This document shows, piece by piece, positions 138 to 53,754 of a stretch of 64,000 nt of DNA. Position 1 is the first letter of the stretch; each line of letters begins with the position of its first letter. Location of the stretch: NCBI GenBank assembly GCA_965198265.1, contig CBDAPB010000026.1:61614-125613 (forward strand). Direction: 5' to 3'. The notes under the pieces are model-generated. The model had not been told where the DNA came from. It saw only the letters and a program-made list of their open reading frames with translations, and did no database searches. This DNA comes from Terriglobia bacterium (GTDB taxonomy: Bacteria > Acidobacteriota > Terriglobia > 20CM-2-55-15). A program made the position numbers and the translations under genes.

Positions 138-1225
138 TTGCCGTGGCTATGAGTGGCGGCGTCGATTCATCGGCGGCCGCCGCGTTGCTGAAGGCACAGG
201 GACATGACATCGTCGGGTTGTCGATGCAACTTTGGAATCAGCGGCGCAAACTCGGCGCTGACGCCGACGGCGACGCGGAAGTTCGCCGCACGGGACGTTG
301 CTGTTCGATCGATGACGTCTGGGATGCCCGGCGGGTAGCCAGCCACATCGGCTTTCCGTTCTATGTCCTGAACCTCGAAGACAAATTCGAGCAAACCGTC
401 ATCGCGCCTTTTGTCAGCTCATACTTGAATGGCGAGACTCCGAGCCCATGCGTTCTTTGCAACAACTACGTCAAGTTCCATCACCTGATGGACAAGGCAG
501 AACAAATCGGCGCCGACCGCGTGGCCACGGGTCACTACGCCCGAGTCCGGTTTGACGAAGCACTCGGGCGGTGGCTCTTGCTTCGCGGATGCGATGGTGG
601 GAAAGACCAATCGTATTTCCTGTTCGGCCTGACACAGGCCCAGCTGTCGAAGACAGTCTTTCCGCTCGGTGAGCTGACGAAGGCTGAGGTGCGGGAGATC
701 GCCCGGAACGCGGGCCTGCCGACCTACAACAAGCCGGAGTCGCAGGAAATCTGCTTTGTCCAGGGCCGGTCCTATGCGGATTTCGTGGAGCAGTACTCCG
801 AGACGACGTCAGATGATCGAGGGGAGATCGTGAACCTGGCGGGAGACGTCGTCGGATCTCATTCGGGCATTCACCGCTATACGGTCGGGCAAAGGAAGGG
901 TCTGATAGCAACAGGGAAGCCGCAATATGTCGTCCGTATCGAGCCGGCGTCGAACCGGGTCGTCGTCGGAGACAATGCGGATACCGCCGGACAGCGCTTT
1001 GCCGTACGGGATGCGAATTGGATCGCGATCGAGCGGCCCTCCGACCCGATCCGCTGCAGCATCCAGATCCGGAACCGGTTCGAGCCGCAGGCCGGCAGCG
1101 TCTTTATCGAAGACGGAAGGACGATCGTCCGTTTCGACACCCCGCAACGTGCCGTCACTCCTGGCCAGGCCGCCGTCTTCTACTGGGACGACGTTGTGGT
1201 CGGCGGCGGGTGGATCACCCGGTAA
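134..1225 (+). CDS. mnmA: tRNA-specific 2-thiouridylase MnmA
   Basis: MIAVAMSGGVDSS PP-loop motif and overall MnmA/TrmU-like sequence. Start taken at the internal ATG of the 86..1225 ORF, which overlaps the upstream stop. Confidence 0.85.
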   Translation: MIAVAMSGGVDSSAAAALLKAQGHDIVGLSMQLWNQRRKLGADADGDAEVRRTGRCCSIDDVWDARRVASHIGFPFYVLNLEDKFEQTVIAPFVSSYLNGETPSPCVLCNNYVKFHHLMDKAEQIGADRVATGHYARVRFDEALGRWLLLRGCDGGKDQSYFLFGLTQAQLSKTVFPLGELTKAEVREIARNAGLPTYNKPESQEICFVQGRSYADFVEQYSETTSDDRGEIVNLAGDVVGSHSGIHRYTVGQRKGLIATGKPQYVVRIEPASNRVVVGDNADTAGQRFAVRDANWIAIERPSDPIRCSIQIRNRFEPQAGSVFIEDGRTIVRFDTPQRAVTPGQAAVFYWDDVVVGGGWITR

Positions 1226-1303
1226 GTCCAAGGTCCGAAGTCCAACGTCCGAGGTCTGCAGCTCGACGTCTTCACCTTGGACCTTGGACCTTGGACCTTG
1301 GAC
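1225..1303. repeat. TTGGACC/GGTCCAA heptamer-based palindromic element (copy 1 of 3)
   Basis: gtccaaggtccgaagtccaacgtccgaggtc ... ccttggaccttggaccttggaccttggac. The two arms are reverse complements. Confidence 0.7.
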
Positions 1304-1942: not shown

Positions 1943-2070
1943 TTCACCGCAAAGACGCAAAGGCGCAAAGGTGTTTTGTTTTCCGAAGGCGACATTCAAT
2001 GACAATCACACCCCTAGTAGCAGATCCGACTACCCATGACTTCCTTTGCGTCTTTGCGCCTTTGCGGTGA
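1943..2070. repeat. Family-1 hairpin element: inverted arms of (N)CGCAAAG x3
   Basis: Left arm caccgcaaagacgcaaaggcgcaaag and right arm cctttgcgtctttgcgcctttgcggtg, about 70 bp apart, between two + strand genes. Confidence 0.8.
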
Positions 2071-2076
2071 GGAACA

Positions 2077-3414: not shown

Positions 3415-5803
3415 CGCACTGATCGTGGGCATCGTCGCTTCACCCTACCTGGATCCGTTCTTCGTTTGGGTGACCCTGATTCCGACCCTGCTGCTCTCCC
3501 TCCTCCGTCCCAAATGCCTGTTGCTCGCCCTCTGTTTAATGGGAGCCGGCCTTCGCGCAAACCAGGAAGTCCGGCCTCCGGTAATCTTAGATGACGGATA
3601 CGCGCGGCGGGTCGTCGCCGTGCTGGAAGGACCGCCCGAATGGAGGGATCCCGGTTACCACTTCGATGTCGACATCCGGACGCTCGACGGACAACCATGG
3701 CGCGGCCGGGCCCGGCTCTCCTTTTTCCCGCACGACGACAAGCTGGACAAGCTGTTCCGCAACCTGGGGTTGGGAACCGGAGATCGCGTCGAAGTCCTGA
3801 CCCGCCTTCGCCCGCCACGCTCCTACCGCAACCCTGGCGTGTTCGACTACAGACGCTACCTGGCCCGTCAGGGAATATTCTGGGCTGGTTCGATCCGAAA
3901 CCCGCGATTGATTCAGGTCCTCAACGGATCCTGGCATGGTGAGGACAGACTTCGGAAGTCGGTCACCGAACGCATCGGCCGGTTCTTCGAGGCTGACGAA
4001 ACAATCCGGGGTCTGGTACTGGGCATGGTTCTGGGACAGCGCCGGAGACTTCCGGCCGATGACGTTCGCCGGTTCCAGGCGGCCGGCCTGATTCACCTCC
4101 TCGTCGTGTCGGGCTTCAACCTCGCGGTCGTGGCCGCAACCGCCCTGTGGCTCGGGCGGCGTCTTCGGTTCGGACGGTTCCAGAGAGCCGGACGATATCT
4201 CTTCGCGCTCGTCGCGATCCTGACCTACGCCGCTCTGGTCGATGGCCAGAGTCCCGTCGTGCGGGCAACGCTGATGGCATCGATCCTGATTCTAGGAAAG
4301 CTGCTGGACCGCGGTTACACGGTCGGCAACGCGCTGGCGGCGAGCGCAATCCTGATTCTGATAGCGGACCCGTCGGCGCTCGAGGATTCCAGCTTCCAGC
4401 TTACATTCGCGGCGGTGCTGGCCATTCAAGTCCTGGGATCGCCGCTGATTCGGTGGTGTCTCGGGTGGCTTCGGCTAGCTTTGCGGGATTTCTCCAGGAC
4501 AGAGCCGGACATGGTGCTGCCGTCTGACGTTGCCGATTGGCGCGTGTCAAGACGCCTCCGCTGTGAGCTCGGCGGATGGCCGCACAGGACGATCACACTA
4601 CCGTGGACGATCCTCACCGCGTTCGCTGAAACGGCCCTCGTCACGCTGTGCGTACAACTGGTTCTCACCGGGTTCATGGTCGAATCTTTTCACCTGCTCT
4701 CCCCCGTCACGGTCCCGCTCAACGTGGTGGGCGCGGCCGTCGCGGCCATCATCACACCGCTGGGCCTGCTCCTGATCCTCCTGCCCCACTTCGCGGGTCT
4801 TATCGTAGCCAGACTCATGTCTGCCCTGCTCCATTTCCTGATCCTGTCGGTCGATCTGGGCCTGCGAGTCCCGGGTGCCAGTTTTCGGGTGCCGTCACCG
4901 CCCGGCGAGGTCTGGGCAATTTACGCCCTGACCGTTCTCGCGTTCATGTTCTCGATTCGCCGACGCTCGCCCCGTGCGGCGCTGTTGAGCCTGGCAGCCG
5001 CCTACACTCTGCAGGCTTTGATCGTCATCGCGGATTTCGACCCGGTTCCGCCGCGACACACTACCGTGACCTTCTTGGATGTCGGCCAGGGGGATTCGAG
5101 TCTGGTCGAACTCACCGACGGCACGCGCGTTCTCATCGACGCGGGGGGTTCCGCCACGGCACGCTACCGGTCGGCTGACGGCCAGGGGACGTTTTCTGTA
5201 GGAGAAGACGTCCTGACGCCCTACCTCTTCTCGCGCGGCATCCGCCATCTAGACGTCGTCGCGCTGACACACGCCCACCACGATCACATGGGCGGTCTGT
5301 TCGATCTGATCCGGAATTTCCGGATTGGTGAGATCTGGCTCGGTCGGAACCCCATGACGGTGCGCTACCGCGAGTTGTTGCAGGAGGCATATGAGCACCA
5401 GATTCCCATCCGCTGGCTTCGGGCGGACGATCGAATCAAAGCTTTCGAAGTGTTGAACCCACCGCGGGACTGGAAAGCGGCCGGCAAGGTAAAGAATGAC
5501 GACTCGCTCGTCTTACTCTTGAGAACCGAGGACGGGTCTGCGTTCTTGACCGGGGATCTCGAACGTTCCATTCCGGCACCGGATCTGGTGGACGTGCTGA
5601 AAGTCCCGCACCACGGCAGCAAGAACACAAGCCTCAAGGTTCGTGCGCTAATCCCAGTGATTTCCGTCGGAGCGAACAACCCGTTCAGACACCCCCACCC
5701 GACCAAGCTGCCGGCCCTCCGCACCGACATCCTGGGAGCCATCCAGGTCGTGCTGACCCCGGACGGCCCGGTGGTGTCGTTCCCTGGGCTGAAGGAAAAA
5801 TAA
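3350..5803 (+). CDS. comEC: DNA internalization competence protein ComEC/Rec2 with metallo-beta-lactamase domain
   Basis: Multi-TM N-terminal region, DUF4131-like segment, and a C-terminal MBL domain (HAHHDHMGG, VLKVPHHGS). Start uncertain. Confidence 0.85.
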   Translation: MCAQHLASTWSTEFLLPRRLLAALIVGIVASPYLDPFFVWVTLIPTLLLSLLRPKCLLLALCLMGAGLRANQEVRPPVILDDGYARRVVAVLEGPPEWRDPGYHFDVDIRTLDGQPWRGRARLSFFPHDDKLDKLFRNLGLGTGDRVEVLTRLRPPRSYRNPGVFDYRRYLARQGIFWAGSIRNPRLIQVLNGSWHGEDRLRKSVTERIGRFFEADETIRGLVLGMVLGQRRRLPADDVRRFQAAGLIHLLVVSGFNLAVVAATALWLGRRLRFGRFQRAGRYLFALVAILTYAALVDGQSPVVRATLMASILILGKLLDRGYTVGNALAASAILILIADPSALEDSSFQLTFAAVLAIQVLGSPLIRWCLGWLRLALRDFSRTEPDMVLPSDVADWRVSRRLRCELGGWPHRTITLPWTILTAFAETALVTLCVQLVLTGFMVESFHLLSPVTVPLNVVGAAVAAIITPLGLLLILLPHFAGLIVARLMSALLHFLILSVDLGLRVPGASFRVPSPPGEVWAIYALTVLAFMFSIRRRSPRAALLSLAAAYTLQALIVIADFDPVPPRHTTVTFLDVGQGDSSLVELTDGTRVLIDAGGSATARYRSADGQGTFSVGEDVLTPYLFSRGIRHLDVVALTHAHHDHMGGLFDLIRNFRIGEIWLGRNPMTVRYRELLQEAYEHQIPIRWLRADDRIKAFEVLNPPRDWKAAGKVKNDDSLVLLLRTEDGSAFLTGDLERSIPAPDLVDVLKVPHHGSKNTSLKVRALIPVISVGANNPFRHPHPTKLPALRTDILGAIQVVLTPDGPVVSFPGLKEK

Positions 5804-5974
5804 CCACGGAGGCGCGGAGGCACGGAGGGGTGTATGGGTTGAGTCGTTCACCCACTTTTCTGGGTAGTGAACATTCGGGGACAGGGCCCGGCCCGTGTCC
5901 CCCTCACATCCCTTCTCTCACGGCAACCGTACGCCCACCGAAAGACCTCCGCGCCTTCGTGCCTCCGTGGTTAA
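5803..5974. repeat. Family-2 hairpin element: inverted arms of C(A/G)CGGAGG x3
   Basis: aaccacggaggcgcggaggcacggagg ... cctccgcgccttcgtgcctccgtggtt, with internal GC hairpins. Begins at the comEC stop. Confidence 0.8.
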
Positions 5975-7967: not shown

Positions 7968-8051
7968 GCGCCCCCTGTCAACTGCTTTTGGCTGTTGGCT
8001 TTTAGCTGTTAGCCTTTAGTTTTGTTGGCTTTTGGCCTAATCTTGGCCTTC

Positions 8052-10919: not shown

Positions 10920-11063
10920 TTTTCACCGCAAAGACGCAAAGGCGCAGAGTCAAAGACTCTGAAGCTGCGCCTTCTTAGCCTCGTCTCTCCACTAGTTGCA
11001 TGGAAGGCGCCGCACTCTGGCTGCAGAAGAACAAGGCCTTTGCGTCTTTGCGCCTTTGCGGTT
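10920..11063. repeat. Family-1 hairpin element
   Basis: tttcaccgcaaagacgcaaaggcgcagag ... cctttgcgtctttgcgcctttgcggtt. Abuts the stop of the M16 peptidase gene. Confidence 0.8.
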
Positions 11064-13779
11064 AATTCGTTCCCCTGAGGATGGCGATCTTGGCTGTGTC
11101 GGGGCTGAGGTATCTGGCGGCGACGGATTGGATGAACTCCAGGCCGACGAGCTGGATGTTCCCGCTGAATTCATCGACTGCCGAGACGCCGGTGCCGGCG
11201 TACACCGAGCGCGCGTAAGTCAGGACGCGTCCCAGACGGGTCTGGAGCTGGATTTCATGGGCGCCAACGGAATAGTTGATACCCTTCTGAAGTTCGTCTT
11301 CGGTGATCCCGTCCGCAATCAGCCGCTTGATCTCCGCTTCCAGCGACTCGAGCACCTGCGCTTCGTTCGCCGGCGAAAAGGCCGTGTAGGTAAACACTGC
11401 ACCGGCCTTGGCCAGCAGGACATCCGACGCCATTACGGTGTAAGCCAGACCCTGCTGCTCGCGGATCGTCTCGAAGAAACGGCCGCCCAGGCCCGAAACG
11501 ACATTTCCAAGTACCTTCAGCGCAAACCGGTCCGGATTCGAGTTCGTCGGCCCGACGAAACCGTAGACCAGAGCCGTCTGCCGCCTGGAGGCTGACTCGA
11601 CGTTCTCCTCACGCTCCAGGTCGACGTCGGGGATCGGCAGCGTGGAGATGTCGCGCTCAAACAGATCCTCGTTGGTCAACGCTTCTGCGATCGAAGCCAC
11701 GAGCCCGGTGCCCTGCGTGTCGCCGACGATCACGATGAGAGGAACCAGCGTTCGCTGATGGAGCTGATGCCACTCGGCCAGATTTTCCCGGGTCAGGGAT
11801 CGAAGCGTCTCTTCGGTACCGACCGCCGGACGGGCATAGGAGTGCCCGTCAAAGACGGTGGACATGAACAGCTGCACGGGGTAGCGAAGATTGTCCTCGC
11901 GGAGCTTGCTGATTCGAGCCTGCTGCAGGCTGCGCTCGAGTTCCACCTCTTCGTCGGGAAACGCCGGCTCCTGGAGGATCTCGATCAGAATCTCCAGCGC
12001 TTGGTTCATCTGTCCGCTGACGCCGTCCAAGATGTAACCGAAGAAATCCTGTTCGTTGACGACCTGGATCCGAGCGCCTGCGTTTTCAAGCCGACGCCCG
12101 ATATCGGCGGTGTTGTACCGGCGGGTACCCCGCAACGCACTGCGCAGCATCAACTCGGTGATGCCCGCATTCGTCGCAGATTCGTAGAGACGCCCTCCGG
12201 GATAGAAAATCCCGAACGAAACCAGCGGCAGCCGATGGTCCTCCAGAACATACACATCGGGGCCCCGGAGGATCGAACTTCGGACGATCGGCCGCACGAG
12301 GTCTTGAACGAGCTCCTGGTCGACAAGCCGCACCTCGGCCGAGACGGGTAGTTCTTCCACAGACCGCTCGATCACTGCCTGACCCACCAGCCGGAGCACA
12401 TTGTCGCGAAAATCTGCGTTAGAAAACGATCGAGTCACCGACGCGGGCAGGTACTCGAACAGGCCGAGGTTCTCATTGCTAAGGTAGGCGTTAGCGACGC
12501 GAGAGACATCGGAGGCCGCCACGCTCAGGATGCCGGGCAGGTACGCGTCCGCCCGCTTCCAGTCTCCGAGCGCCTCGTGACGGGACAGTTCTTCGGCGAT
12601 GCCATCGACCGTCTCGAGTCGATGGTAGAACTCCTGAGCCAGCAAAGCCTTCGCCCGGGACAGTTCCTCACCGGTCACCCCGAACTGTTTGACCTGCTCG
12701 ATCTCGGCCAGTGCAGCGATTTCCGCATCGATAGGCGATGCCGCTGTTTCCAATGTGATCTCGAAATAACCGAGGTCTCTGAAGCCGGACAGCGAAGCGG
12801 AAGCGCTGCTGATAATGCCCTGCTCATCGCGGAGAAACCGGTTCATCCGGGATGCCCGTCCGGTGGTCAGAATCGACCGGAGGACCTCGAGCGGGTAGCG
12901 ATCATCGGAACGGGCGTCGGGAACATGGTAGCCGATCGCAATGTGGCTCTGCTCGTGGCTTCCACGCTCCCAGTTGTACCGGAAGCTTGCCTGGGATCCC
13001 TCCGAAGGGGCGGAATCCCTCTCAACAGCCGTGTCTTCGGCGTCCCCGTAGAGCCGGATGACTTGCTCCAACATCTCTTCCCGCTCGAACCGGCCGACGA
13101 GAGTCAGTATGATGTTCGACGGCTGGTAGTACTTCCTGTAGTAGGCCACGATGTCGTCCCGCGTCAGCGCCCGCAGCCCCTCGGCGCTGCCGATTCGCCA
13201 TCGCCGCATTCGATGACTGCGGAACGCGGTCTCGTACAGCCTCTCGGACGCCACCGCAGGGGGGTTGTCCAGCTTTCTGTTGTTTTCCTGCAGGATTACT
13301 TCGATCTCGCGAGCGAGTTCTTCATCATCAAGTGTCGGATTCCACAGCGCATCGGCCTGGATGTCCATCGCCGCTACGGTGTTCTCTGCCGGCACGACGG
13401 CCCGGTACACGGTACGGTCGTAAGCGGTATAGGCGTTCAGGTAACCTCCAAGGGCCTTGGTTTGCCTCGCAATCTGACCGACCGGCCGCTTTGGCGTTCC
13501 TTTGAAGAACATGTGCTCGATCACATGGGAGATCCCCGAGATCCGATCGGGCTCGTCGAAGTACCCCACCTTGACGTGGGTCGTCACGCTGGTCAACGGG
13601 ATGGCGTTCTGCTCTCGAACGATCACGGTCAGACCGTTCTGCAGGATGACTTTCGTCGTCTGTCCGACGTCTTCTCTGAAAATATAGGGTCCCACGATTT
13701 CTCCGGCTATCGGTACTTCAGGAATTGGTATCGGCAACTGCGGAATGACCTGCAGAAAAAGAAGGAAAGCCAGAAACAT
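11062..13779 (-). CDS. M16 family zinc peptidase with two tandem M16 units (pitrilysin-like)
   Basis: Signal peptide; inverted zinc motif HVIEHMFFKGT; length consistent with a duplicated M16 fold. Confidence 0.85.
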   Translation of the reverse strand: MFLAFLLFLQVIPQLPIPIPEVPIAGEIVGPYIFREDVGQTTKVILQNGLTVIVREQNAIPLTSVTTHVKVGYFDEPDRISGISHVIEHMFFKGTPKRPVGQIARQTKALGGYLNAYTAYDRTVYRAVVPAENTVAAMDIQADALWNPTLDDEELAREIEVILQENNRKLDNPPAVASERLYETAFRSHRMRRWRIGSAEGLRALTRDDIVAYYRKYYQPSNIILTLVGRFEREEMLEQVIRLYGDAEDTAVERDSAPSEGSQASFRYNWERGSHEQSHIAIGYHVPDARSDDRYPLEVLRSILTTGRASRMNRFLRDEQGIISSASASLSGFRDLGYFEITLETAASPIDAEIAALAEIEQVKQFGVTGEELSRAKALLAQEFYHRLETVDGIAEELSRHEALGDWKRADAYLPGILSVAASDVSRVANAYLSNENLGLFEYLPASVTRSFSNADFRDNVLRLVGQAVIERSVEELPVSAEVRLVDQELVQDLVRPIVRSSILRGPDVYVLEDHRLPLVSFGIFYPGGRLYESATNAGITELMLRSALRGTRRYNTADIGRRLENAGARIQVVNEQDFFGYILDGVSGQMNQALEILIEILQEPAFPDEEVELERSLQQARISKLREDNLRYPVQLFMSTVFDGHSYARPAVGTEETLRSLTRENLAEWHQLHQRTLVPLIVIVGDTQGTGLVASIAEALTNEDLFERDISTLPIPDVDLEREENVESASRRQTALVYGFVGPTNSNPDRFALKVLGNVVSGLGGRFFETIREQQGLAYTVMASDVLLAKAGAVFTYTAFSPANEAQVLESLEAEIKRLIADGITEDELQKGINYSVGAHEIQLQTRLGRVLTYARSVYAGTGVSAVDEFSGNIQLVGLEFIQSVAARYLSPDTAKIAILRGTN

Positions 13780-13826
13780 ACAAACAGTTTACCGCAGCGC
13801 TTGCCCGAGTAGTTTCGGCGAATCGT

Positions 13827-14004
13827 TTTTCACCGCAAAGGCGCAAAGACGCAAAGGTTATATACCCCCAAGCCGCCTATGATTCCGATTATTCGATACG
13901 GTATCGCTGAAACAAAAAAGCCTATCGCCGTGAGGCATGTTGCGGGTCAGGTGGCGCTGTATCGGCATGAATTAAAAAAATCTTTGCGTCTTTGCGCCTT
14001 TGCG
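13827..14004. repeat. Family-1 hairpin element, long variant with a conserved 50-nt inner motif
   Basis: Arms caccgcaaaggcgcaaagacgcaaag / tctttgcgtctttgcgcctttgcg. Inner motif ggcatgttgcgggtcaggtggcgctgtatcggcatgaat. Confidence 0.8.
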
Positions 14005-14005
14005 A

Positions 14006-14443
14006 TCAAACATCTTCGTCCGCACCGCTCTCAAGTTGAATCTGGCGAGCATTCGCGTCGACGTAGGTCAGGGTGACGCGTGTGGCGGGACCGGGGTCGA
14101 AGTTGCCGAGACGTTCGGCCCATTCCACGACCACCGCGGCCGCGGGTTCATCGAACATGTCTTCCAGGCCCAGATCGTCGAGCTCGCCTGACTCGATGCG
14201 ATAGAGGTCGACATGGTAGATCGGCATCCGCGCCGCGTACTGATTGACGAGCGTGAAGGTCGGGCTGGATACCTCGCCGACGTCCTCCAGACCCAGGCCG
14301 GCGGCCAACCCCTTCGCGAACGTTGTTTTTCCGGCTCCGAGTTCACCGAAGAGCAGGACGTGAACCGGCAGTTCCAGCGTGCCGGCCAGTTCCCGGGCAA
14401 ACTCGAACGTTTGCTCCTCAGACTGGGAAAGAAAGCTCGTCAT
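14006..14443 (-). CDS. tsaE: tRNA t6A37 biosynthesis ATPase TsaE
   Basis: Walker A motif (FGELGAGKTTFAKG) and the YHVDLYRIE motif. Start trimmed to MTSFLSQ because the longer ORF extension runs through the repeat. Confidence 0.85.
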   Translation of the reverse strand: MTSFLSQSEEQTFEFARELAGTLELPVHVLLFGELGAGKTTFAKGLAAGLGLEDVGEVSSPTFTLVNQYAARMPIYHVDLYRIESGELDDLGLEDMFDEPAAAVVVEWAERLGNFDPGPATRVTLTYVDANARQIQLESGADEDV

Positions 14444-14452
14444 CGGGGGTAT

Positions 14453-14720
14453 TTCACCGCAAAGGCGCGAAGGCGCAAAGGCTGTATTCGCACAAGGAAG
14501 GCTCCAGTTCACCGTTGCGGTCTCTCTATACGTAGATGTCCTTTTCACGTAGAAACGAAAAAAACGAAGGACAGACGAGGACTAGTTCCGAAAAAATCTT
14601 CGTTCACTTCGCTTCTTCGTGTCGAAACAACGATCTATCGTCTTGAGGCACGTTGCAAGTCAGGTGGCGCTGCATCGGCATGAATGAACAAGATCTTTGC
14701 GCCTTCGCGCCTTTGCGGTG
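14453..14720. repeat. Family-1 hairpin element, long variant (second copy of the inner motif)
   Basis: Arms tttcaccgcaaaggcgcgaaggcgcaaagg / tctttgcgccttcgcgcctttgcggtg. Inner motif ggcacgttgcaagtcaggtggcgctgcatcggcatgaat. Confidence 0.8.
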
Positions 14721-14726
14721 AAAAAA

Positions 14727-19165: not shown

Positions 19166-19232
19166 TTCACCGCAAAGACGCAAAGGCGCAAAGGAACCTT
19201 GTCTTCTTTGCGTCTTTGCGCCTTTGCGGTGA
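19166..19232. repeat. Family-1 hairpin element (short-loop form)
   Basis: ttcaccgcaaagacgcaaaggcgcaaagg aacc ttgtcttctttgcgtctttgcgcctttgcggtgaa. Confidence 0.85.
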
Positions 19233-19239
19233 AAAAAAG

Positions 19240-22296: not shown

Positions 22297-22362
22297 GTGC
22301 GCTCTATATGAGCGCACATTCCTCGACCCGACACAACGTGCGCTCATAGAGCGCACCTACAC
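22291..22362. repeat. Family-5 palindrome (GTGTAGGTGCGCTC-TATA-GAGCGCAC...), between convergent genes
   Basis: gtgtaggtgcgctctatatgagcgcac ... gtgcgctcatagagcgcacctacac. Likely a bidirectional terminator. Confidence 0.7.
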
Positions 22363-23634: not shown

Positions 23635-23649
23635 GATATGATCATCCCG

Positions 23650-23795: not shown

Positions 23796-23819
23796 ATTAC
23801 CTTTCGAGGGAGAGGGACC

Positions 23820-25967: not shown

Positions 25968-26842
25968 ACAACATCGGACGATCCGCGGGCGCGCTGGTGT
26001 GCGCCCTCATGCTGCTGTCGTGCTCGGAATCCCAGACTGTGGAAATCCCTCGGCCAGAGGCTCCTGAACGAATCGTTTCGCTCGTGCCCGCCGTGACGGA
26101 AATGCTGTTTGCGCTCGGGGCTGGTGAACGGGTCGTCGGTGTCAGCGACTACGACACCTATCCACCAGAAGTCCTGCGTTTGCCGAAGGTCGGGGCACTC
26201 ATCAACCCGAACCTGGAGAAGATTTTCGAACTGCAACCGGAAATGGTGATCACCTACGGAACCCAGTCCAATCTGCGAGAGCGGCTCGACGCCGCCGGAA
26301 TCCGCTCATACTCTTTCCTTCACGGCCCGATCGACGACATGCTGGATTACGTGCTCGAACTGAGCCGTGAACTCCGTATGGAGAACGAGGGGCGCCGCCT
26401 GGTCGACGAAATCCGGGGTGAGCTGGACGCAATCCGAGGCGGCGCGTCCGGGTATCGACCTCGTGTTCTACTGGCCCACAGCCGGGAAGTGGGCACGATG
26501 GGGTCGTTCTACAGCGGAGGCGGCGAATCGTTCTTCAACGAGCTGATCGACATCGCCGGCGGTGTCAACATCTTTGGCGATGTCGAGGACGACTCGATCC
26601 AGCCATCACTAGAAGAGGTTCTCAAACGCCGGCCCGAGATCATCATCGAGCTGCTGCCGTCCAACAGGGATGACCCGGATCAGATCGCCCAGCGAATCCA
26701 GGATTGGAGGCAGCTCAAGACCCTGCCCGCGGTTCAACGGGAACGTGTCCACGTCATTGCCGGCGATTACCTCCTCCTCATTGGCCCCCGACTCCACCTC
26801 GCCGCCCGACGATTGGCTGAAGTGATTCGGGAAGAAGAATAA
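25949..26842 (+). CDS. btuF: periplasmic cobalamin/siderophore-type ABC substrate-binding protein (BtuF-like, lipoprotein)
   Basis: Lipobox LLSC; class-8 SBP pattern (RIVSLVPAVTEMLFALGAGERVVGVSDY...LQPEMVITYG). Confidence 0.7.
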   Translation: MGWRTLNNIGRSAGALVCALMLLSCSESQTVEIPRPEAPERIVSLVPAVTEMLFALGAGERVVGVSDYDTYPPEVLRLPKVGALINPNLEKIFELQPEMVITYGTQSNLRERLDAAGIRSYSFLHGPIDDMLDYVLELSRELRMENEGRRLVDEIRGELDAIRGGASGYRPRVLLAHSREVGTMGSFYSGGGESFFNELIDIAGGVNIFGDVEDDSIQPSLEEVLKRRPEIIIELLPSNRDDPDQIAQRIQDWRQLKTLPAVQRERVHVIAGDYLLLIGPRLHLAARRLAEVIREEE

Positions 26843-27133
26843 CCACGGAGGCGCGGAGACACGGAGGTCCCTTTTTCATTGAGCCGAGGAGTTCAAGAGA
26901 TGGCTCGGGCGTGGGGGGGGCCGGACCAGCTGTCTTTCTCCGGAATCGTTCCCAATGAGTGTAGTCGTCGAACGCTCTCGTTCGCGGTGAGAGGGGGACG
27001 GTGGGCCCGACGCTAAAGAATGGTCGGGGACAGGGGCCTGGCCCTGGCCCCGGGTGTCGGCTCTAGCAGAAACGTCGGTTAACGACTCACCTGCCTACCA
27101 AAAAACTCCGCGCCTCAGTGCCTCCGTGGTTAA
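26841..27133. repeat. Family-2 hairpin element (long form, about 290 bp)
   Basis: aaccacggaggcgcggagacacggagg ... ctccgcgcctcagtgcctccgtggtt, with GC-rich internal hairpins (gtcggggacaggggcctggccctggccccgggtgtcgg). Confidence 0.8.
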
Positions 27134-29281: not shown

Positions 29282-30571
29282 ATGTCCTCCTTCTTTCTAA
29301 TCTCTATCCTCCTTGTATTTCTTTTCCTGTCAGGATTCTTCTCCCTGTCGGAAACGGCGGTGTTATCGAGCAATCGGTATCGCATCCGGCACCTCGCGTC
29401 GAAGGGAAACAGAAACGCGCGGAAGCTCGCTGGTTGGTTGGACGCACCCCAGAAACTTCTGGCGACGATCCTGCTCGGCAACAACTTTGCCAACATCGGT
29501 GCCGCGACCGTGGCGGCGGCGCTCGTCACGCGCACTTTCCAGGAGCAGCAGCGGGACCTCTACCTGGCGCTGGAAACGATCGTGCTGACGCTTGTCGTTC
29601 TGTTGTTCTGCGAACTGGGGCCCAAAGCGTTCGCGACGCGAACGCCCGAGAGGATCAGTCTCCGCCTCGTCGTCCCGATCGAGGTGTGGATGCGGGTCGT
29701 CTATCCCGTGGCCCAACTGGCAATCAGGTTTGCGGGTCTTTTCTACCGTAGCGTTCGGGAGAATCAGCAGACGCTTGCGGCGTCGATATCAGACGTTGAA
29801 CTCAAGTCGATCATCAACAGCTACACGCAGGATCGGAGGAAGATGCTCGAGCGGGTACTCGAATTTTCGGAACGGCAAGTGCGAGATGTGATGGTGCCGC
29901 GGATGGAAACCGTGTCACTCGCGATCTCGACGCCGCTGGAAGACGTTCTGCGCGTGGTAGAGACAACACGTTTCACGCGTTTTCCGGTATACCACGGCAG
30001 CATGGACAACGTGCTGGGTATCTTACACGGCAAGGATCTGATGCCCTACCTGCACCAACAGAAGACGTTCCGGATTTCGAACTTGCTCCGCAAACCGATC
30101 TTCATCCCCGATACTGCGCGGCTGAACAATGCCGTAAGCGTCCTGCAGACGGCGCAAACTCATATGGGAATCGTCGTCGACGAGCATGGTGGTGTGGAGG
30201 GCATCGTCACCCTCGAAGACCTGATCGAACAGATCGTCGGCGAGATTCAGGACGAACATGACGTTGAGGTTGACGAGATCGTCCCGCAGGCGAACGGGAA
30301 TTACCTGATCGACGCCGGCATATCTGTCCGAGAACTGAACGAGAGATTGGGCTTGGGCGTGCCCGAAGAAGGACAATACGTTACGCTGGCCGGTTTCATC
30401 CTGATGAAGACGGGCCGACTGCCGACCGAAGGCGATGAGATCGAGTTCGAAGGAGACACCTACCGGATCGATCAGATGGTCGGTCGCAGGATCATGCGCG
30501 TGCGGCTGAATCGGACGCTCTCTTCGAGCAGCGTTGAACAAGAGCAGATTGACTTGAAAGAAGAGGCATAG
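29282..30571 (+). CDS. CNNM/CorC/TlyC-type transporter (DUF21 + CBS pair + CorC_HlyC)
   Basis: N-terminal DUF21 TM region (LSETAVLSS), two CBS motifs, and a transporter-associated C-terminal domain. Confidence 0.8.
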   Translation: MSSFFLISILLVFLFLSGFFSLSETAVLSSNRYRIRHLASKGNRNARKLAGWLDAPQKLLATILLGNNFANIGAATVAAALVTRTFQEQQRDLYLALETIVLTLVVLLFCELGPKAFATRTPERISLRLVVPIEVWMRVVYPVAQLAIRFAGLFYRSVRENQQTLAASISDVELKSIINSYTQDRRKMLERVLEFSERQVRDVMVPRMETVSLAISTPLEDVLRVVETTRFTRFPVYHGSMDNVLGILHGKDLMPYLHQQKTFRISNLLRKPIFIPDTARLNNAVSVLQTAQTHMGIVVDEHGGVEGIVTLEDLIEQIVGEIQDEHDVEVDEIVPQANGNYLIDAGISVRELNERLGLGVPEEGQYVTLAGFILMKTGRLPTEGDEIEFEGDTYRIDQMVGRRIMRVRLNRTLSSSSVEQEQIDLKEEA

Positions 30572-30577
30572 CCACGG

Positions 30578-30700
30578 ATTACACGGACTGGAAGAAACCT
30601 GTGGTCTGCGCTCCGAAAGACTACTCCTAATCCGTTAAATCCGTGGCTGAATTCTCAGTGCAATCCGTGGCGGGAAACCGTTCACCGCTTAGCCAACTCC
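30578..30700. repeat. GCCACGGATT / AATCCGTGGC inverted repeat between convergent genes
   Basis: gccacggattacacgg...ccgttaaatccgtggc, plus a third copy caatccgtggcg. Probable bidirectional terminator. Confidence 0.5.
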
Positions 30701-33252: not shown

Positions 33253-33427
33253 CCACCGCAAAGGCGCAAAGACGCAAAGAGAGGAGTTTTCTTTCTTCGC
33301 TGCCACCTCCGCGTCTCTGCGCCTCCGTGGTGATAGGCAGCGTTTCGGTTCGGATTCCCGACAGGGGCGGCCAATCTCCGCCACGAAGCGAGAAAATAAC
33401 CTTGCGTCTTTGCGCCTTTGCGGTGAC
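33253..33427. repeat. Family-1 hairpin element containing a lone family-2 arm
   Basis: ttccaccgcaaaggcgcaaagacgcaaag ... cttgcgtctttgcgcctttgcggtga. cacctccgcgtctctgcgcctccgtggtg (33303-33332) is a family-2 arm nested inside. Confidence 0.75.
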
Positions 33428-35218: not shown

Positions 35219-35250
35219 AGTAGTCAGTAGTCAGTAGTCGGTAGTCAGTT
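35219..35250. repeat. AGTAGTC heptamer tandem array (left arm of a split palindrome)
   Basis: agtagtcagtagtcagtagtcggtagtcagtt. The complementary arm aactgactaccgactacgactact lies at 35489-35513. Confidence 0.7.
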
Positions 35251-35267
35251 AGGGATCAGAGTGAGGC

Positions 35268-35453
35268 TCAATGTAAGACAAAGAAGAAGCCGCAGCAAAT
35301 GAGCAGGGCCGCCCCAACCGCCAGCAGCCCCGTGTCCATTCGCTCCTCAGACGGACGCATAGTATTCGTAACTGAATGTTTCAATTCGTTGCCGCAGTGA
35401 GCGCAGAACCTGTGATGCGCCTCTACCGTCGCCTGACACTTCGGACAATTCAT
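35268..35453 (-). CDS. small zinc-ribbon membrane protein (61 aa)
   Basis: CPKCQATVEAHHRFCAHCG zinc ribbon plus a C-terminal TM helix. Strong RBS (AGGAGGaataATG). Paralogous to the N-terminus of the 34672..35181 protein. Confidence 0.5.
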   Translation of the reverse strand: MNCPKCQATVEAHHRFCAHCGNELKHSVTNTMRPSEERMDTGLLAVGAALLICCGFFFVLH

Positions 35454-36981
35454 TATTCCTCCTGACTGAAGAATGTTCGATTTCCGACAACTGACTACCG
35501 ACTACGACTACTTCCCCTTCCCTCATCCCCTCTCTACCGTGTGCCTCTTCAGCAGATTGGGGTAGATGCGGAACCGGTGATTGGAATCGGTCGTGTGGAG
35601 GAAACTCAAGCCGTTTCCTTATGTCCCCGCGACTGGTTTGAATCGTGATGCGGGGTCCGCCTTCGCCAAGCTCTCCGACGACCCTCTGGTCGCGTCCCGA
35701 CGACACGCGGTCGATTCCCTCGAAATCCGAATCGAATGAGCCGGAGCGGGTCTGGGCATCGAGCGAAAAGTTCGAGGCCGCGGGCATCTCGATCCGGATG
35801 TCGGTATAGTCGCCGGTCCCGACGAAGGAGATGTCGTTCTGCGGCGGCACCTCAACCTCAAACAGGAGTCGAATGCCGCCGTGCCGGTTGGCAAGGTCGA
35901 TCTCTCCAGCCGCGTTGCGTACGATGATGTCCTTGTAGGAACTCTCCACTTCGACCGGACCCGTCACGTCCTCCAGGTCGACCGAGTTGTTGCGCCCTTC
36001 GATCTGAACCCGGCCTCCGACTCTCTCGACGCTGACCAGGGAATACTTGTTGTCGATCGTCGCGTCTCCCACGACCCCCGACACGTGGACGCTTCCGTAT
36101 TTGTTCTCGACGAGGGCGTCACCGCCGATTTCGGTGACGGTCACACTGCCGTACTTGTTGACGATGCCGACGCTCCCTGAGACGTTCTCGGTGACGACGG
36201 GACCGTAGCCGTCCTCGATCCGGACACTGCCGGTGACGCCTCGTATCGTCGTGCCGCCGTAACGATTCTCGACCTCCTGGTCTCCACTCAGGCCCGTGAC
36301 GCGAACAGGACCATACTTGTTGTTGACCCGGAGTGATGACTCAGCGGGCACTTGGATCGTGAGGCTGGTCTTGAACCGCCGTCGGAGGGATGAGCGGAGG
36401 TCGTCGCGATTGGACTCGACAACGTAGGAATCACCCCGATCGGTGATCGTAAAATACATTTCCGGCTCAAGGCGTTCGGCCTGCTCGCGGCTTGTTGCCC
36501 GGACGGTCTTTTCGATGTTGACGACGATCCTATCGCCCTCTCCGGGTTCGACCTCCACCGAACCATAGATATTGTGGATCTCGACGCTCCGTCCGGGCAC
36601 GGCTTCAGCCTCGAGATTGGCTGAGAATTCGTAGTTGTCACCCAGGAGGTCAAAGAGATCGAAATCTTCGCCCAGGTTGATGTCGATGAACCCCACTTCG
36701 GAAGTGAGGTGAGCGGCGGCAGTCAGAGCACTGCCGACGAAGAGGACCAACACGAGCAGGGCGACCTCGCCCCCGGAAAACAGCCGTCGATTCTCGCCCT
36801 TCAATCGGTAGTAATCCACGACCTTCAGCAGCCCCCAGGCGATGATCAGAATCGGCCAGTACAGGGCCAGCCCCTGCCAGATCGGGATGTCATAGCCGAG
36901 GTTTCGGAGCAACAGCACCACTCCGACAGCGATCAGTATGATCGCCCAGAAGATGGTGCCCAGGCCACGACGCGGATTCAT
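35347..36981 (-). CDS. DUF4097 repeat protein with N-terminal TM region (LiaF/YvlB-like)
   Basis: Two N-terminal TM helices, then repeated NKYG(P/S)V...V(T/E)... beta units as in DUF4097 proteins. The C-terminal tail overlaps the small zinc-ribbon gene in another frame. Start at MNPRRG with a GGAGG RBS. Confidence 0.65.
   Translation of the reverse strand: MNPRRGLGTIFWAIILIAVGVVLLLRNLGYDIPIWQGLALYWPILIIAWGLLKVVDYYRLKGENRRLFSGGEVALLVLVLFVGSALTAAAHLTSEVGFIDINLGEDFDLFDLLGDNYEFSANLEAEAVPGRSVEIHNIYGSVEVEPGEGDRIVVNIEKTVRATSREQAERLEPEMYFTITDRGDSYVVESNRDDLRSSLRRRFKTSLTIQVPAESSLRVNNKYGPVRVTGLSGDQEVENRYGGTTIRGVTGSVRIEDGYGPVVTENVSGSVGIVNKYGSVTVTEIGGDALVENKYGSVHVSGVVGDATIDNKYSLVSVERVGGRVQIEGRNNSVDLEDVTGPVEVESSYKDIIVRNAAGEIDLANRHGGIRLLFEVEVPPQNDISFVGTGDYTDIRIEMPAASNFSLDAQTRSGSFDSDFEGIDRVSSGRDQRVVGELGEGGPRITIQTSRGDIRKRLEFPPHDRFQSPVPHLPQSAEEAHGREGMREGEVVVVGSQLSEIEHSSVRRNNELSEVSGDGRGASQVLRSLRQRIETFSYEYYASV
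35489..35513. repeat. GACTACT heptamer array (right arm, complementary to 35219-35250)
   Basis: aactgactaccgactacgactactt. Confidence 0.7.
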
Positions 36982-41037: not shown

Positions 41038-41044
41038 ATGGTGT

Positions 41045-47050: not shown

Positions 47051-47054
47051 CGCC

Positions 47055-48713: not shown

Positions 48714-49578
48714 AATCAAGATCGGCATCATCGGAGGCAGCGGCCTCTACGAAATGGACGGGCTGACCGACATTCAGGAAATGTCTGTCGAAACGCCATT
48801 CGGCTCTCCGTCAGACGCCTACCGCGTCGGTACTCTGGAGGACCGCCGGGTGGCCTTTCTCGCCCGGCACGGACGCGGCCACACGATCATGCCTTCGGAG
48901 CTGAACTTCAGGGCCAACATCTACGGCTTCAAGAAACTCGGCGTGGAGCGCATCCTTTCCGCAAGCGCAGTCGGTTCCCTCAAAGAGGAACATGCCCCCC
49001 TGGACATCCTGCTTCCCGACCAGTTTTTCGACCGGACCCGGACCAGAGTTTCGACTTTCTTCGGAGACGGGCTGGTCGCACACGTCAGTTTCGGGGATCC
49101 GATCTGTCCGGACCTGGCCGACGTCATCGAGAGCGCGGCCGCGGATGCCGACATTTCGATCCACCGCGGAGGGACCTACATCTGTATGGAAGGCCCGCAA
49201 TTTTCGACCAAGGCGGAATCGTACACATACCGCAGTTGGGGCATGGATGTCATCGGCATGACGAACCTACAGGAAGCCAAGCTCGCCAGGGAGGCTGAAA
49301 TCTGCTACACGACGATGGCACTGGTAACCGATTATGACTGCTGGCATCCGGATCACGATTCGGTGACCGTCAGTGAAATCATCGAGAACCTCCAGAAGAA
49401 CAGCGTCAACGCGCAAAAGATCATTCGTGCCGCCGTCCCTCGTCTACCCGGGAGTCGGGATTGCGCTTGCAAGGACGCTCTCAAGTACGCCGTGATCACG
49501 GATCCGGCGAAGATACCGGCAGAGACGCGGAAGCGCCTGGACCTGCTGGTGGGGAAGTATTTGGGAAGTAGTCAGTAG
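48703..49578 (+). CDS. mtnP: S-methyl-5'-thioadenosine phosphorylase
   Basis: PNP/MTAP family ([10 protein letters not shown]...ARHGRGH...[18 protein letters not shown]). Confidence 0.85.
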
Positions 49579-49640
49579 TCAGTTGGGGTGTGCGAACTGC
49601 AAACTGATAACTAACTGACTACCGACTACTGACTACTGAT
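49567..49640. repeat. AGTAGTC / GACTACT heptamer-array hairpin
   Basis: agtagtcagtagtcagtt ... aactgactaccgactactgactactg, about 27 bp apart. Confidence 0.75.
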
Positions 49641-53680: not shown

Positions 53681-53754
53681 TCACCGCAAAGGCGCAAAGA
53701 CGCAAAGGGAGAAAGAAATATCAATTCTTTCCGACCTTTGCGCCTTTGCGGTGA
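53681..53754. repeat. Family-1 hairpin element (short form) between convergent genes
   Basis: tcaccgcaaaggcgcaaagacgcaaaggg ... cctttgcgcctttgcggtga. Confidence 0.8.

Follow-up and report, generated by a model that had tools for sequence, protein, structure and literature searches.

Few components of bacterial genomes are as poorly understood as dispersed palindromic repeats, and to our knowledge a cognate enzyme is known for only one class of them, the REPINs with their RAYT proteins. REP superfamilies are defined by a terminal GTAG or CGTC tag (Di Nocera 2013; PMC3733652). REPIN-RAYT systems are described as vertically inherited and lineage-specific.

The elements considered here lie in a 64-kb stretch of DNA from a Terriglobia bacterium (the window, meaning the whole stretch that was analysed). 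They resemble REPIN-RAYT systems, in which hairpin-forming REP doublets are served by a single-copy Y1 transposase (Bertels and Rainey 2011, PMC3116915), in being many short extragenic hairpin doublets situated mostly at gene ends and, as set out below for other genomes, in the company of a small nuclease-type gene that is flanked by repeats, is far outnumbered by them and co-varies with them in sequence. They differ in that each arm is made of three tandem direct octamers, spacer length varies between about 10 and 240 nt, the protein found with them is a member of the PD-(D/E)XK superfamily (PF13366) rather than an HUH/Y1 transposase, and near-identical arms recur across phyla.

The closest published architecture is that of Geobacter metallireducens, in which sites of three classes (1–3) occur in pairs on opposite strands, separated by a variable distance, and each site consists of 3–5 tandem 7/8-mers (Aklujkar et al. 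2009, PMC2700814). By that description the Geobacter sites share the build of the window elements and are likewise multicopy and intergenic; they differ in having been described only as alignments in supplementary figures and read as putative sites for an IHF/HU-type regulator, and the paper noted no link to GxxExxY genes, no spread across phyla and no bias toward gene ends (PMC2700814). Intergenic tandem heptamers are also common to distant phyla, as in the cyanobacterial STRR and the TAACTGA repeats of Beggiatoaceae, Cyanobacteria and Bacteroidetes (MacGregor 2015, PMC4679880). These share with the present elements the presence of one specific intergenic 7–8-mer in distant phyla with no known vector, but they are mostly direct arrays, reported just upstream of start codons, whereas here the repeats form inverted arms at stop codons. 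Finally, MITEs such as Correia and Nezha are small, non-autonomous and bounded by terminal inverted repeats, as the window elements are by arms of 24–33 nt; unlike MITEs, the window elements have no clear target duplication, non-homologous interiors, ends made of tandem repeats and no DDE transposase found to match. A literature search returned the arm string in no paper.

Anatomy and position of the hairpins

Ten loci had been listed in the window by the original prediction, seven of CGCAAAG type and three of CGGAGG type, and pattern searches located all ten at the positions claimed, with none expected by chance. At up to two mismatches the window holds 13 arms of (CGCAAAG-N)x3, compared with none in 100 shuffles, and 5 arms of (CGGAGGC-N)x3, again with none expected. 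An arm consists of three tandem 8-mers (N+CGCAAAG or C[A/G]CGGAGG) preceded by a terminus of 4–6 nt (TTCAC or TAACC), and two such arms are inverted around a non-conserved spacer, the purine-rich arm coming first whichever strand is read. An inverted-repeat scan gave arm complementarities of 85–100% and inter-arm distances of 12 to 239 nt. RNA folds of four elements, computed for both strands, gave energies between −42 and −68 kcal/mol, with z between −4.8 and −9.9. The stems had been described as perfect over about 26 bp, but perfection is not general: in the CGCAAAG elements at 1943, 10920 and 19166 the A and G spacer bases occur in swapped order in the two arms, leaving one A·C mismatch and one G·U pair, the right arm of 53681–53754 has only two units, and that of 13827–14004 is without GGTG.

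Stop codons lie in or close to several of the CGCAAAG-type elements. The hairpin at 1943..2070 (arms 1944–1971 and 2043–2070, 71-nt spacer, fold −60/−61 kcal/mol) follows a 220-aa gene whose stop is at 1937–1939, and only 6 nt separate its end from the start codon of a tRNA U5-methyltransferase gene, the ATG at 2077. At 10920..11065 (fold −65/−68 kcal/mol) the genes on either side converge, and the minus-strand stop of the M16 peptidase gene (11062–11064) falls within the arm end GGTTAA. The element at 13826..14012 separates the 3′ end of tsaE, whose stop (14006–14008) is 1 nt from the arm, from the 5′ end of the M16 gene, and that at 14452..14723 lies between the 3′ end of a yjeF-like gene (stop 14727–14729) and the 5′ end of tsaE; its 29-nt arms are 100% complementary across a 214-nt spacer, and its middle unit is the variant CGCGAAG in both arms. 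The minimal form, two 28-nt arms around a 12-nt spacer (19166..19233; −47.9/−45.1 kcal/mol, z −8.9/−7.8), stands between DUF169 and NUDIX genes, both on the plus strand; gene boundaries at 19243–19776 and 22558–23454 are those called in the assembly. Convergent genes also enclose 33253..33427 (a STAS gene and a 196-aa gene), which has a lone CGGAGG-type arm nested in its spacer at 33303–33332, and 53681..53754.

Two complete hairpins are of CGGAGG type. That at 5801..5973 (TAACCACGGAGGCGCGGAGGCACGGAGG with an inverted copy) opens with the stop codon of a comEC-like gene, the TAA at 5801–5803 being the first triplet of the arm TAACCACGG, and that at 26840..27132, between convergent genes and with a 239-nt spacer, opens in the same way with the TAA (26840–26842) of a Peripla_BP_2 gene. 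The contacts previously proposed for the comEC-like, M16 and tsaE stops thus all hold, and the Peripla_BP_2 stop joins them.

Every entry of the earlier list is real, but the list was incomplete, and four further hairpins of the same build were found. One, at 30570..30648 between convergent genes, is of a third octamer type (CACGGATTACACGGACT with an inverted copy; CACGGATT-type octamers), and its unit resembles repeats that flank distant GxxExxY genes of Treponema and a Fusobacteria bacterium. The other three have arms of heptamers: 1224..1303, which has the build of the octamer hairpins but a period of 7, pairs four AAGTCCA-like units with four of ACCTTGG in a 51-nt intergenic space; 35220..35505 carries AGTAGTC x4 and an inverted copy with the arms 232 nt apart; and 49567..49637 pairs AGTAGTC with ACTGACT/GACTACT in a 72-nt intergenic space. 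Lone heptamer arrays also occur in the window, one of them with a copy number that varies between strains.

All nine octamer hairpins abut at least one gene 3′ end, in agreement with the intergenic, 3′-end location first suggested for them; 4 of the 9 lie between convergent genes, 5 between same-strand genes and none between divergent genes. As palindromes scattered outside genes and next to gene 3′ ends, they can aptly be compared with REP/BIME elements in a descriptive sense. As in REPINs, two inverted units form a hairpin that recurs outside genes (nine intergenic octamer hairpins in 64 kb). A REP unit, however, is itself an imperfect palindrome of 20–40 nt, whereas the arms here are three direct 8-mers without an internal dyad, and their termini (TTCACC/GGTGAA and TAACCAC/GTGGTTA) carry no GTAG or CGTC tag. 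A search of the elements against Rfam gave no match at gathering level, only chance snoRNA-level matches at E of about 1. Rfam has one real match in the window, to a cobalamin riboswitch. The 3′ arm contains GTCTTTG, which may correspond to a binding heptamer of the cold-shock protein CspB, and CACGGAGG would fit the CsrA/RsmE consensus CANGGANG; no weight is placed on either resemblance here.

Terminators and gene 3′ ends

Intrinsic terminators and the window elements have in common a stable stem-loop just 3′ of genes, often at convergent junctions. The elements differ from terminators in their stems of 24–33 bp, in loops of up to about 240 nt and in the repetition of one sequence at many loci. 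The flanks read 5′-TTTT-CACC[arm]...[arm]GGTG-AAAA-3′, and an RNA copied from either strand would carry its U's ahead of the hairpin and its A's behind. The order is opposite to that of an intrinsic terminator, in which a G+C-rich stem is followed within 0–2 nt by a U-rich tract. A scan with a terminator consensus reported only inner arm fragments from the elements. The idea that these hairpins replace terminators thus finds no support in their anatomy. Nor is a canonical terminator as scarce in the window as had been stated, at a single copy: at least three are present, at 56816–56840, at 34590–34612 on the minus strand (a 10-bp stem followed by CTTTTGGTTT), and at 53761–53793, a bidirectional GC-hairpin with a T-tract (AAAAGGGCGGCC-CGCT-GGCCGCCCTTCTTTCG) that lies directly 3′ of the element 53681..53754. 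The scan covered the first 60 kb of the window in three 20-kb stretches and found 17 terminator-like patterns vs 17.3 expected, 17 vs 17.0 and 29 vs 16.8 (sd 4.4).

A wider form of the RNA explanation is that the host selects these structures at transcript 3′ ends, for transcript ending or for protection of mRNA 3′ ends, and that the repeat sequence is incidental. The very stable stems fit it, as do the presence of a gene 3′ end at all nine octamer hairpins and the occupation of 4 of about 8 convergent junctions in the window; canonical terminator patterns, moreover, were unenriched in two of the three stretches scanned. Further points in its favour come from the junction downstream of the M16 gene in relatives at 55–63% amino acid identity, which is either empty or filled from stop to stop by a different palindrome. 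It is empty (TAA-CG-TTA) in three of them (L133, L135 and L154), reads TAA-CCACAGAGACACAAAG...-TTA in a fourth (L132), and in a fifth (L127) holds CACAAAG arms around a GC-rich core hairpin. The frequent filling by different palindromes is what strong deletion pressure combined with selection for hairpins predicts. In the last case the octamer arms extend the GC-rich core, which places CTTTGTG units after the stem in the manner of a weak U-tract. The turnover at this orthologous junction counts equally in favour of the explanation that we prefer.

Against these stand the T-runs on the 5′ side and A-runs on the 3′ side on both strands, the canonical terminator adjoining one element, and the location of five of the nine hairpins between genes on the same strand, in one case with the next ATG only 6 nt away. 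A hairpin does not require 28-nt arms that are identical at nine loci and near-identical in at least 12 phyla, nor would local selection be expected to produce them, and in other genomes the arms bracket a gene of a specific nuclease family. Host-selected 3′-end structure is thus an unlikely account of the elements as a whole. It is compatible with the explanation that we prefer, given below, as a secondary or co-opted role, and the elements may serve as mRNA 3′ hairpins. What stands of the original interpretation is the presence of extragenic palindromes at gene 3′ ends; the replacement of terminators is not supported.

For annotation it follows that structure alone is no ground for scoring such hairpins as terminators, and that stop codons inside arm termini can mislead gene-end calls.

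Mobility and insertion sequences

The spacers are unrelated between window copies except in one pair, in which 83 nt of the spacer of 13826..14012 are 87% identical to the spacer of 14452–14723; the elements are therefore unlike simple deletion derivatives of one master copy. A sister strain (ENA assembly, 99.9% identical) has no presence/absence difference in octamer hairpins from the window, and the comparison thus does not demonstrate mobility of the elements. The only differences between the two are a change in heptamer copy number, small duplications, an 80-nt indel and an IS. On the sister-strain contigs beyond the window, the only mobile elements are IS21 and DDE_Tnp_1. No target-site duplication was found for the CGCAAAG family, and the TA that borders the CGGAGG family at either end can equally be read as an extension of the palindrome.

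These data bear on the proposal that the elements are ordinary MITEs of DDE-type insertion sequences or classical REP/REPIN sequences served by a RAYT (an IS200-like Y1 transposase). The elements do have terminal inverted repeats and are small, multicopy and intergenic; the CGGAGG family, read as TA-ACCACGG...CCGTGGT-TA, could reflect a TA duplication of the IS630/mariner type; and the genome harbours both real MITEs and GTAG-tagged REP doublets. On the other side, the duplication is missing from one family and ambiguous in the other, MITE copies share an interior and the ends of an autonomous IS, whereas here only the one pair shares 83 nt and no IS with such ends was seen, and the precomputed Pfam lists for the window and 8–10 kb of flanking sequence contain no Y1 transposase. 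The true REP doublets of this genome (22294–22362 and 41040–41110) have an internal dyad and look quite different, and the arms are tandem direct repeats without the terminal GTAG/CGTC tag by which REP superfamilies are defined (PMC3733652). We therefore regard this as the least probable of the explanations considered, and a very improbable one. The real MITEs of the window are 275 nt long and behave differently, and in the sister strain one of them has a DDE_Tnp_1 IS as its neighbour.

Arm recurrence and the GxxExxY family

That the elements might be confined to the window had been named as an outcome that would count against them; instead, the arm is present in at least 12 phyla. A scan for exact (CGCAAAG-N)x3, with one genome per species, gave at least 120 hits, and the hosts among the hits listed include Acidobacteriota, Chloroflexota, Cyanobacteriota, Pseudomonadota, Myxococcota, Desulfobacterota, Bacteroidota, Verrucomicrobiota, Planctomycetota, Chlamydiota, Nitrospirota and Gemmatimonadota. 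Also among the hits listed, the five bases before the arm are conserved (T61% Y T77% C74% A52%), and hairpins with the purine arm first outnumber the other orientation by 75 to 16. The recurrence is specific to the octamer: in IMG/VR the CGCAAAG triple occurs in 81 stretches and the CGGAGGC triple in 22, compared with 6, 4 and 1 for three composition-matched permuted octamers, which makes the CGCAAAG arm 13–80 times commoner than these controls. Arms of CGGAGG type in other genomes have the same TTCAC/CTCA termini, and the window arms match the build seen across phyla, namely a terminus of T(Y)TCN, TTCAC or TAACC, at least 2–3 tandem CRCNRAG+N units, the purine arm in first place and an inverted partner downstream. 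The position at gene ends also recurs, with 45 of 75 cross-phylum hairpins (60%) having the stop of a long ORF that reads inward within 45 nt, vs 11% of random positions.

Conservation of this kind could mean that the arms are read by a protein as duplex DNA, and paired sites for a nucleoid or global regulator, of the IHF/HU type proposed in Geobacter metallireducens, would be one such case. The class 2 consensus of that organism, TCTCCGTS[Y] (PMC2700814), is similar to the CGGAGG family as read on its pyrimidine strand (CCTCCGTG/CCTCCGCG), the arms are far better conserved than the spacers, and the bases between octamer units are only 49.5% complementary, often unpaired, which fits reading of the sequence better than pure pairing. 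Yet the Geobacter proposal was itself a guess, and known multimeric proteins that bind duplex DNA use a helical repeat to which an 8-bp period does not correspond. The orientation bias of 75 to 16, together with partner termini that are 73% complementary vs 44% for shuffled partners, points to pairing of the arms, and a preference for stop codons over promoters would be unusual for the sites of a regulator. Binding sites of this sort are accordingly an improbable explanation.

When all ORFs at the 120 loci listed were clustered, the sole recurrent family with arms on both sides within 75 nt was a protein of about 125 aa, found at 6 loci, with bit scores of 148 for TIGR04256 (GxxExxY) and 143 for PF13366 (PDDEXK_3); an HMM search for GxxExxY gave 8 hits in 0.83 Mb. 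We know of no function for this family, which belongs to the PD-(D/E)XK superfamily. The gene fills the hairpin loop in Nostoc (L069), Desulfobacterales (L021), Bernardetia (L203), Bacteroides (L205) and a further locus, L291. In the last the layout between convergent genes is stop-CTCA(CGCAAAGG)x3-7 nt-ATG...TAA-23 nt-(CCTTTGCG)x3TGAG, and the Bacteroides locus has the same termini as the window, TTCACC...GGTGAA, with units that mix both window families. Seven of the associated GxxExxY genes come from loci picked for carrying the arm; in a sample chosen without regard to arms (8 plasmid tblastn hits and 3 database proteins), short tandem or inverted repeats were seen by eye beside all 11 genes, and a strict automatic repeat test was positive for 9 of 22 GxxExxY flanks vs 5 of 61 background windows.

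Across phyla, the octamer sequence tracks the similarity of the GxxExxY protein. All copies 61–81% identical to the Nostoc protein have CGCAAAG or CGCCAAG units, their named hosts being Cyanobacteriota, a Deltaproteobacteria MAG, Chloroflexota and Verrucomicrobiota, with three copies on metagenome contigs of unknown taxon. Copies 44–56% identical have CGCAGAG, CACAGAG, CACAAAG or CGCGAAG units, with the exception of one (L009, 51%) that has CGCAAAG, and those at or below 40% have unrelated units.

The protein keeps the E...D...ExK motif, with E27, D67, E77 and K79 invariant in 42 homologues. Its AlphaFold2 model is weak (pLDDT 66, pTM 0.65), Foldseek found no PDB entry that matched the model with E below 0.1, and a PDB sequence search gave nothing relevant. 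The grounds for the PD-(D/E)XK assignment are therefore the Pfam family, the invariance of the E/D/ExK residues and, over the core, weak matches to Cas4. The family is large: a word-index search with one query returned at least 8000 homologues, all scored ones at E ≤ 1e-10.

The window elements share with these nuclease-associated hairpins the arm build and the location on the stop-codon side of genes, and a GxxExxY (PF13366) gene or remnant was found neither in or beside a hairpin nor elsewhere in the 64-kb window and its spacers (tblastn, and HMM with filters off). The precomputed Pfam lists of the sister strain show no PDDEXK_3 gene in the 8–10 kb on either side. GxxExxY was likewise absent from 0.85 Mb of sequence from relatives, although these are rich in similar hairpins, and from 1.07 Mb of IMG/VR loci, 81 of them with a CGCAAAG arm. 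The gene is therefore much rarer than the arms, which in many genomes may occur without it.

On balance we favour the explanation that the window elements are ORF-less, non-autonomous members of a nuclease-associated family of hairpin repeats, related to GxxExxY as REPINs are to their RAYT. The genome of the window presumably has, or once had, a cognate GxxExxY gene. The nuclease, encoded elsewhere in the genome, would recognise the tandem octamers and/or an extruded hairpin or cruciform, and would copy, move or maintain the arms; the elements would thus be mobile. Copies would persist where they are least harmful, on the stop-codon side of genes, where some supply or overlap the stop codon itself. 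Where transcribed, the elements, which are not built as intrinsic terminators, would place stems of 24–33 bp at mRNA 3′ ends, where they may slow 3′ exonucleases or become substrates of RNase III. The dependence might also run in the other direction, with GxxExxY genes homing into pre-existing hairpins. A telomerase-like templated addition of repeats was considered as an idea and is not relied on here.

More tentatively, GxxExxY and the octamer and heptamer hairpins may together form a repeat-plus-nuclease system that has gone unrecognised across phyla, in which a small PD-(D/E)XK nuclease recognises the arms, or the hairpin or cruciform that they form, and propagates or maintains them, a cassette of about 470 bp moves between phyla, and ORF-less hairpins are left at gene ends; we see this as a serious possibility, somewhat short of an even chance. 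If true, the REPIN-RAYT lifestyle would have been invented twice independently, or the system would be a homing element of a new kind, and it would explain the paired octamer sites of Geobacter and perhaps some of the shared heptamer repeats. If the link between hairpin and gene holds, it would account for the near-verbatim presence of one 28-nt sequence in Cyanobacteria, Acidobacteriota, Verrucomicrobiota, Chlamydiota, Myxococcota and others, repeats earlier guessed to be regulator sites would be reinterpreted, and the very large orphan family GxxExxY/PDDEXK_3 would gain a concrete nucleic-acid partner amenable to bench experiments.

Arm structure, gene ends and terminators

Pattern searches recovered arms of tandem 8-mers at the loci where the original prediction had placed them. 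Thirteen arms of the form (CGCAAAG-N)x3, with up to two mismatches, are present in the window, compared with none in 100 shuffles, as are five of the form (CGGAGGC-N)x3, likewise absent from shuffles. Paired, they give seven inverted repeats of the CGCAAAG type and two of the CGGAGG type, with arms of 24–33 nt, complementarity of 85–100% and arm-to-arm distances of 12 to 239 nt; a lone CGGAGG arm sits nested within element 33253–33427. Each arm consists of a short terminus (TTCAC or TAACC), three 8-mers and a G, the variable position of the 8-mers being a purine almost without exception. RNA folding of four elements on both strands gave −42 to −68 kcal/mol (z-scores −4.8 to −9.9); the perfect stems originally described are not general, the A/G spacer bases being swapped in order between the arms of three elements. 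Spacers are unrelated among the window copies, except for neighbors 13827 and 14453 (83 nt shared, 87% identity). Target duplication was not evident at the CGCAAAG-type hairpins, the TA bordering both sides of the CGGAGG type could equally belong to the palindrome, and insertion polymorphism relative to a 99.9% identical sister-strain assembly was not seen.

By the gene calls stored with that assembly, plus our own, all nine elements touch at least one gene 3′ end, with convergent neighbors in four cases, same-strand neighbors in five and divergent neighbors in none. The exact contacts with stop codons noted earlier are real: the first triplet of the TAACCACGG arm is the TAA stop of two genes, and the M16 peptidase and tsaE stop codons overlap or touch CGCAAAG arms. 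The elements are flanked by TTTT-CACC...GGTG-AAAA, therefore RNA of either strand has U's ahead of the hairpin and A's behind it, an order opposite to that in an intrinsic terminator. Canonical terminators lie at 56816–56840, at 34590–34612 on the minus strand and at 53761–53793, directly adjoining element 53681–53754. A scan of three 20-kb stretches, ending before the last 4 kb of the window, found terminator-like patterns at shuffle expectation in two (17 vs. 17.3 and 17 vs. 17.0) and above it in the third (29 vs. 16.8). To call terminators scarce is thus roughly fair, the original count of only one was wrong (there are at least three), and their replacement by hairpins is unsupported by the anatomy. 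Octamer hairpins would not act as classical terminators; when transcribed they would form long stems that may stabilize RNA or be processed.

The right end of element 1943–2070 (GCGGTGA) forms, with the next bases GGAAC, a GAGGA Shine-Dalgarno-like motif (window 2061–2079), 5 nt ahead of the ATG at 2077 of the downstream methyltransferase gene. Since the motif is shared with the end of the element, folding would partly sequester the methyltransferase ribosome-binding site.

Arms across phyla and the GxxExxY gene

The exact CGCAAAG triple, searched in one genome per species, has at least 120 matches in at least 12 phyla; among the matches listed, conservation extends to the bases that precede the arm (T, Y, T 77%, C 74%, A 52%). 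A relaxed search found 75 hairpin arrangements vs. 16 everted ones. Variant units (CGCCAAG, CGCGAAG, CGCAGAG, and CACAAAG) tend to be common to both arms of a pair, and complementarity between true partner arms exceeds that between shuffled ones (0.818 vs. 0.735), as it does for their 5-nt termini (0.73 vs. 0.44). IMG/VR contains 81 stretches with the CGCAAAG triple and 22 with the CGGAGGC triple, compared with 6, 4, and 1 for three permuted octamers of equal composition. The arms are a specific family and not background slippage. CGGAGG arms elsewhere share TTCAC/CTCA termini, so the two families of the window form one superfamily. A long-ORF stop reading inward lies within 45 nt of 45 of the 75 cross-phylum hairpins, vs. 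11% of random positions; such stop-proximal sites would be where elements are tolerated. In some genomes (loci L104, L310, and L237) octamer arms form regular arrays instead of hairpins, with six copies at an 81-nt period in Dolichospermum (L104 5513–5940) and many copies at a period of about 41 nt in the flanks of the GxxExxY gene 601–984 of L310.

Clustering of all ORFs from the 120 loci among the arm matches listed revealed one small protein inside or directly beside arms at six of them; this protein, GxxExxY (TIGR04256, 148 bits; PF13366 PDDEXK_3, 143 bits), is the only recurrent family among the listed loci with arms within 75 nt on both sides. It belongs to a PD-(D/E)XK family of unknown function with "multiple transfers" between divisions (Steczkiewicz et al., 2012; PMC3424549), and the literature searched on GxxExxY nowhere discusses repeats. 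The gene fills the hairpin loop in Nostoc (L069), a Desulfobacterales MAG (L021), Bernardetia (L203), Bacteroides finegoldii (L205), and metagenomic locus L291. The cassette in L291 is wedged between convergent genes in the layout stop-CTCA(CGCAAAGG)x3-7 nt-ATG...TAA-23 nt-(CCTTTGCG)x3TGAG; that of L205 has the termini of the window elements, TTCACC...GGTGAA, and units mixing both window families. Elsewhere the gene lies between two hairpins (L009 and L011), amid arm arrays (L310) or, in Sphingomonas, as a cassette wedged between fabD and fabG. GxxExxY genes picked regardless of arms (8 plasmid hits and 3 database proteins) all have short tandem or inverted repeats alongside when inspected by eye; a strict automatic test was positive for 9 of 22 GxxExxY flanks vs. 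5 of 61 background windows.

Octamer type tracks protein similarity and not host phylum. Copies 61–81% identical to the Nostoc protein have CGCAAAG or CGCCAAG units (named hosts in four phyla; three of the copies lie on metagenome contigs without a named taxon), copies 44–56% identical have CGCAGAG, CACAGAG, CACAAAG, or CGCGAAG units, and copies at or below 40% have unrelated units; the one exception, L009, has CGCAAAG units at 51% identity. Residues E27, D67, E77, and K79, invariant in 42 homologs, fit a putative active E...D...ExK site.

No GxxExxY gene or relic was found in the window or the element spacers, and the precomputed Pfam lists for an extra 8–10 kb of flank include no PDDEXK_3 gene; 0.85 Mb of sequence from relatives and IMG/VR loci totaling 1.07 Mb likewise yielded no GxxExxY. 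For the window elements this weakens the link to the gene, as do the unrelated spacers and the lack of an evident target duplication or insertion polymorphism. A protein that reads the arms may keep them conserved while spacers drift, or the hairpins may have a different reason for existing and serve GxxExxY genes as homing sites.

Turnover at gene ends and other repeats

The region downstream of the M16 peptidase was compared in soil-metagenome relatives (55–63% amino acid identity). In some the convergent junction is essentially empty (TAA-CG-TTA), and in others a palindrome fills the gap exactly, stop to stop, with different arms each time: L132 has TAACCACAGAGACACAAAG..., L127 has CACAAAG units surrounding a GC-rich core hairpin, and L128 and L147 have other long palindromes. 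Those of L128, L132, and L147 run on into the final codons of the two genes (e.g., AAGAAGAATTAA...TTAATTCTTCTT), therefore two unrelated proteins have identical terminal residues, as though the palindrome had replaced the C-terminus of each. Gene ends, as these states show, turn over rapidly; this fits recurrent insertion, and it also fits selection for a hairpin of some kind at that spot. That the elements primarily serve the host as 3′ hairpins is rather unlikely; such a function would be compatible with our preferred reading as a co-opted role. Units (GGCGGTCTATGACCGCC) similar to the window REP occur at the M16 junction of relatives L125, L126, L143, and L144.

The window contains a third octamer type (30570–30648), heptamer-armed hairpins (1224–1303, 35220–35505, and 49567–49637) and lone intergenic heptamer arrays of GACCTTG/GACTTTG, GCTTTTG, and TACTGAC (23590–23634, 7984–8036, 43681–43707, and 44696–44795). 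At 23590 the array is one heptamer shorter than its counterpart in the 99.9% identical assembly (L121); it overlaps the 5′ boundary of a cobalamin riboswitch (23606–23805, 87.6 bits) upstream of a TonB-dependent receptor gene. Two GTAG-tagged self-palindromic REP doublets with the unit GTGTAGGTGCGCTCTATATGAGCGCAC (22294–22362, filling the gap where the DAHP synthase and M24 peptidase genes converge, and 41040–41110) look like classical REPINs. There are two 275-nt MITE families: one, MITE-like, has 33-nt terminal inverted repeats (CTAGTGGCCTGTAACGGAGATATCGG...; 19746–20018, 32065–32335, 45588–45858, and 60393–60669), and the other has arms CTAGCAGCCCGTGGCAGAAGTCTGATGG... 208 nt apart (47054–47329 and 51551–51824), both copies beginning at or a few nt from a gene stop codon. 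Set beside these heptamer, REP and MITE repeats, the octamer hairpins thus form a separate class within a genome rich in repeats.

In the sister-strain assembly (L302 9951–11686), a 1.7-kb insertion with a DDE_Tnp_1 transposase immediately adjoins MITE copy 60393, with a 4-nt overlap in the alignment at its junction. Differences between the window (35537–35616, 43760–43821, and 35819–35848) and sister contig L303 comprise an 80-nt stretch replaced by 4 nt, a 27-nt tandem duplication within the AIRS-domain gene and two 6-nt duplications; these could be real strain variation or stem from errors in a long-read assembly at 6x.

Relation to described systems

Of the objects described so far, compared by published description, the paired sites of tandem octamers in G. 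metallireducens come closest; they are alike in architecture and include one unit similar to a window unit (PMC2700814). It seems improbable that the window elements serve a nucleoid protein as binding sites on duplex DNA, the guess made for Geobacter. REPIN-RAYT systems are closest in lifestyle (PMC3116915), and the elements have only a slim chance of being ordinary MITEs or REPINs. They differ from REPs because the arms lack an internal dyad and a GTAG/CGTC tag, from intrinsic terminators because there is no 3′ U-tract, and from DDE-derived MITEs because there is neither a shared interior nor a cognate IS in the window. As far as the literature searched shows, the cross-phylum identity of the arms and their pairing with a gene of the PD-(D/E)XK family are undescribed. 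Arm anatomy and the association with the gene were observed directly; nuclease action, mobility and effects on RNA are inferences. By a modest preference, we regard the window elements as ORF-less members of a hairpin family that a GxxExxY nuclease encoded elsewhere would propagate or maintain, tolerated near stop codons and without classical termination.
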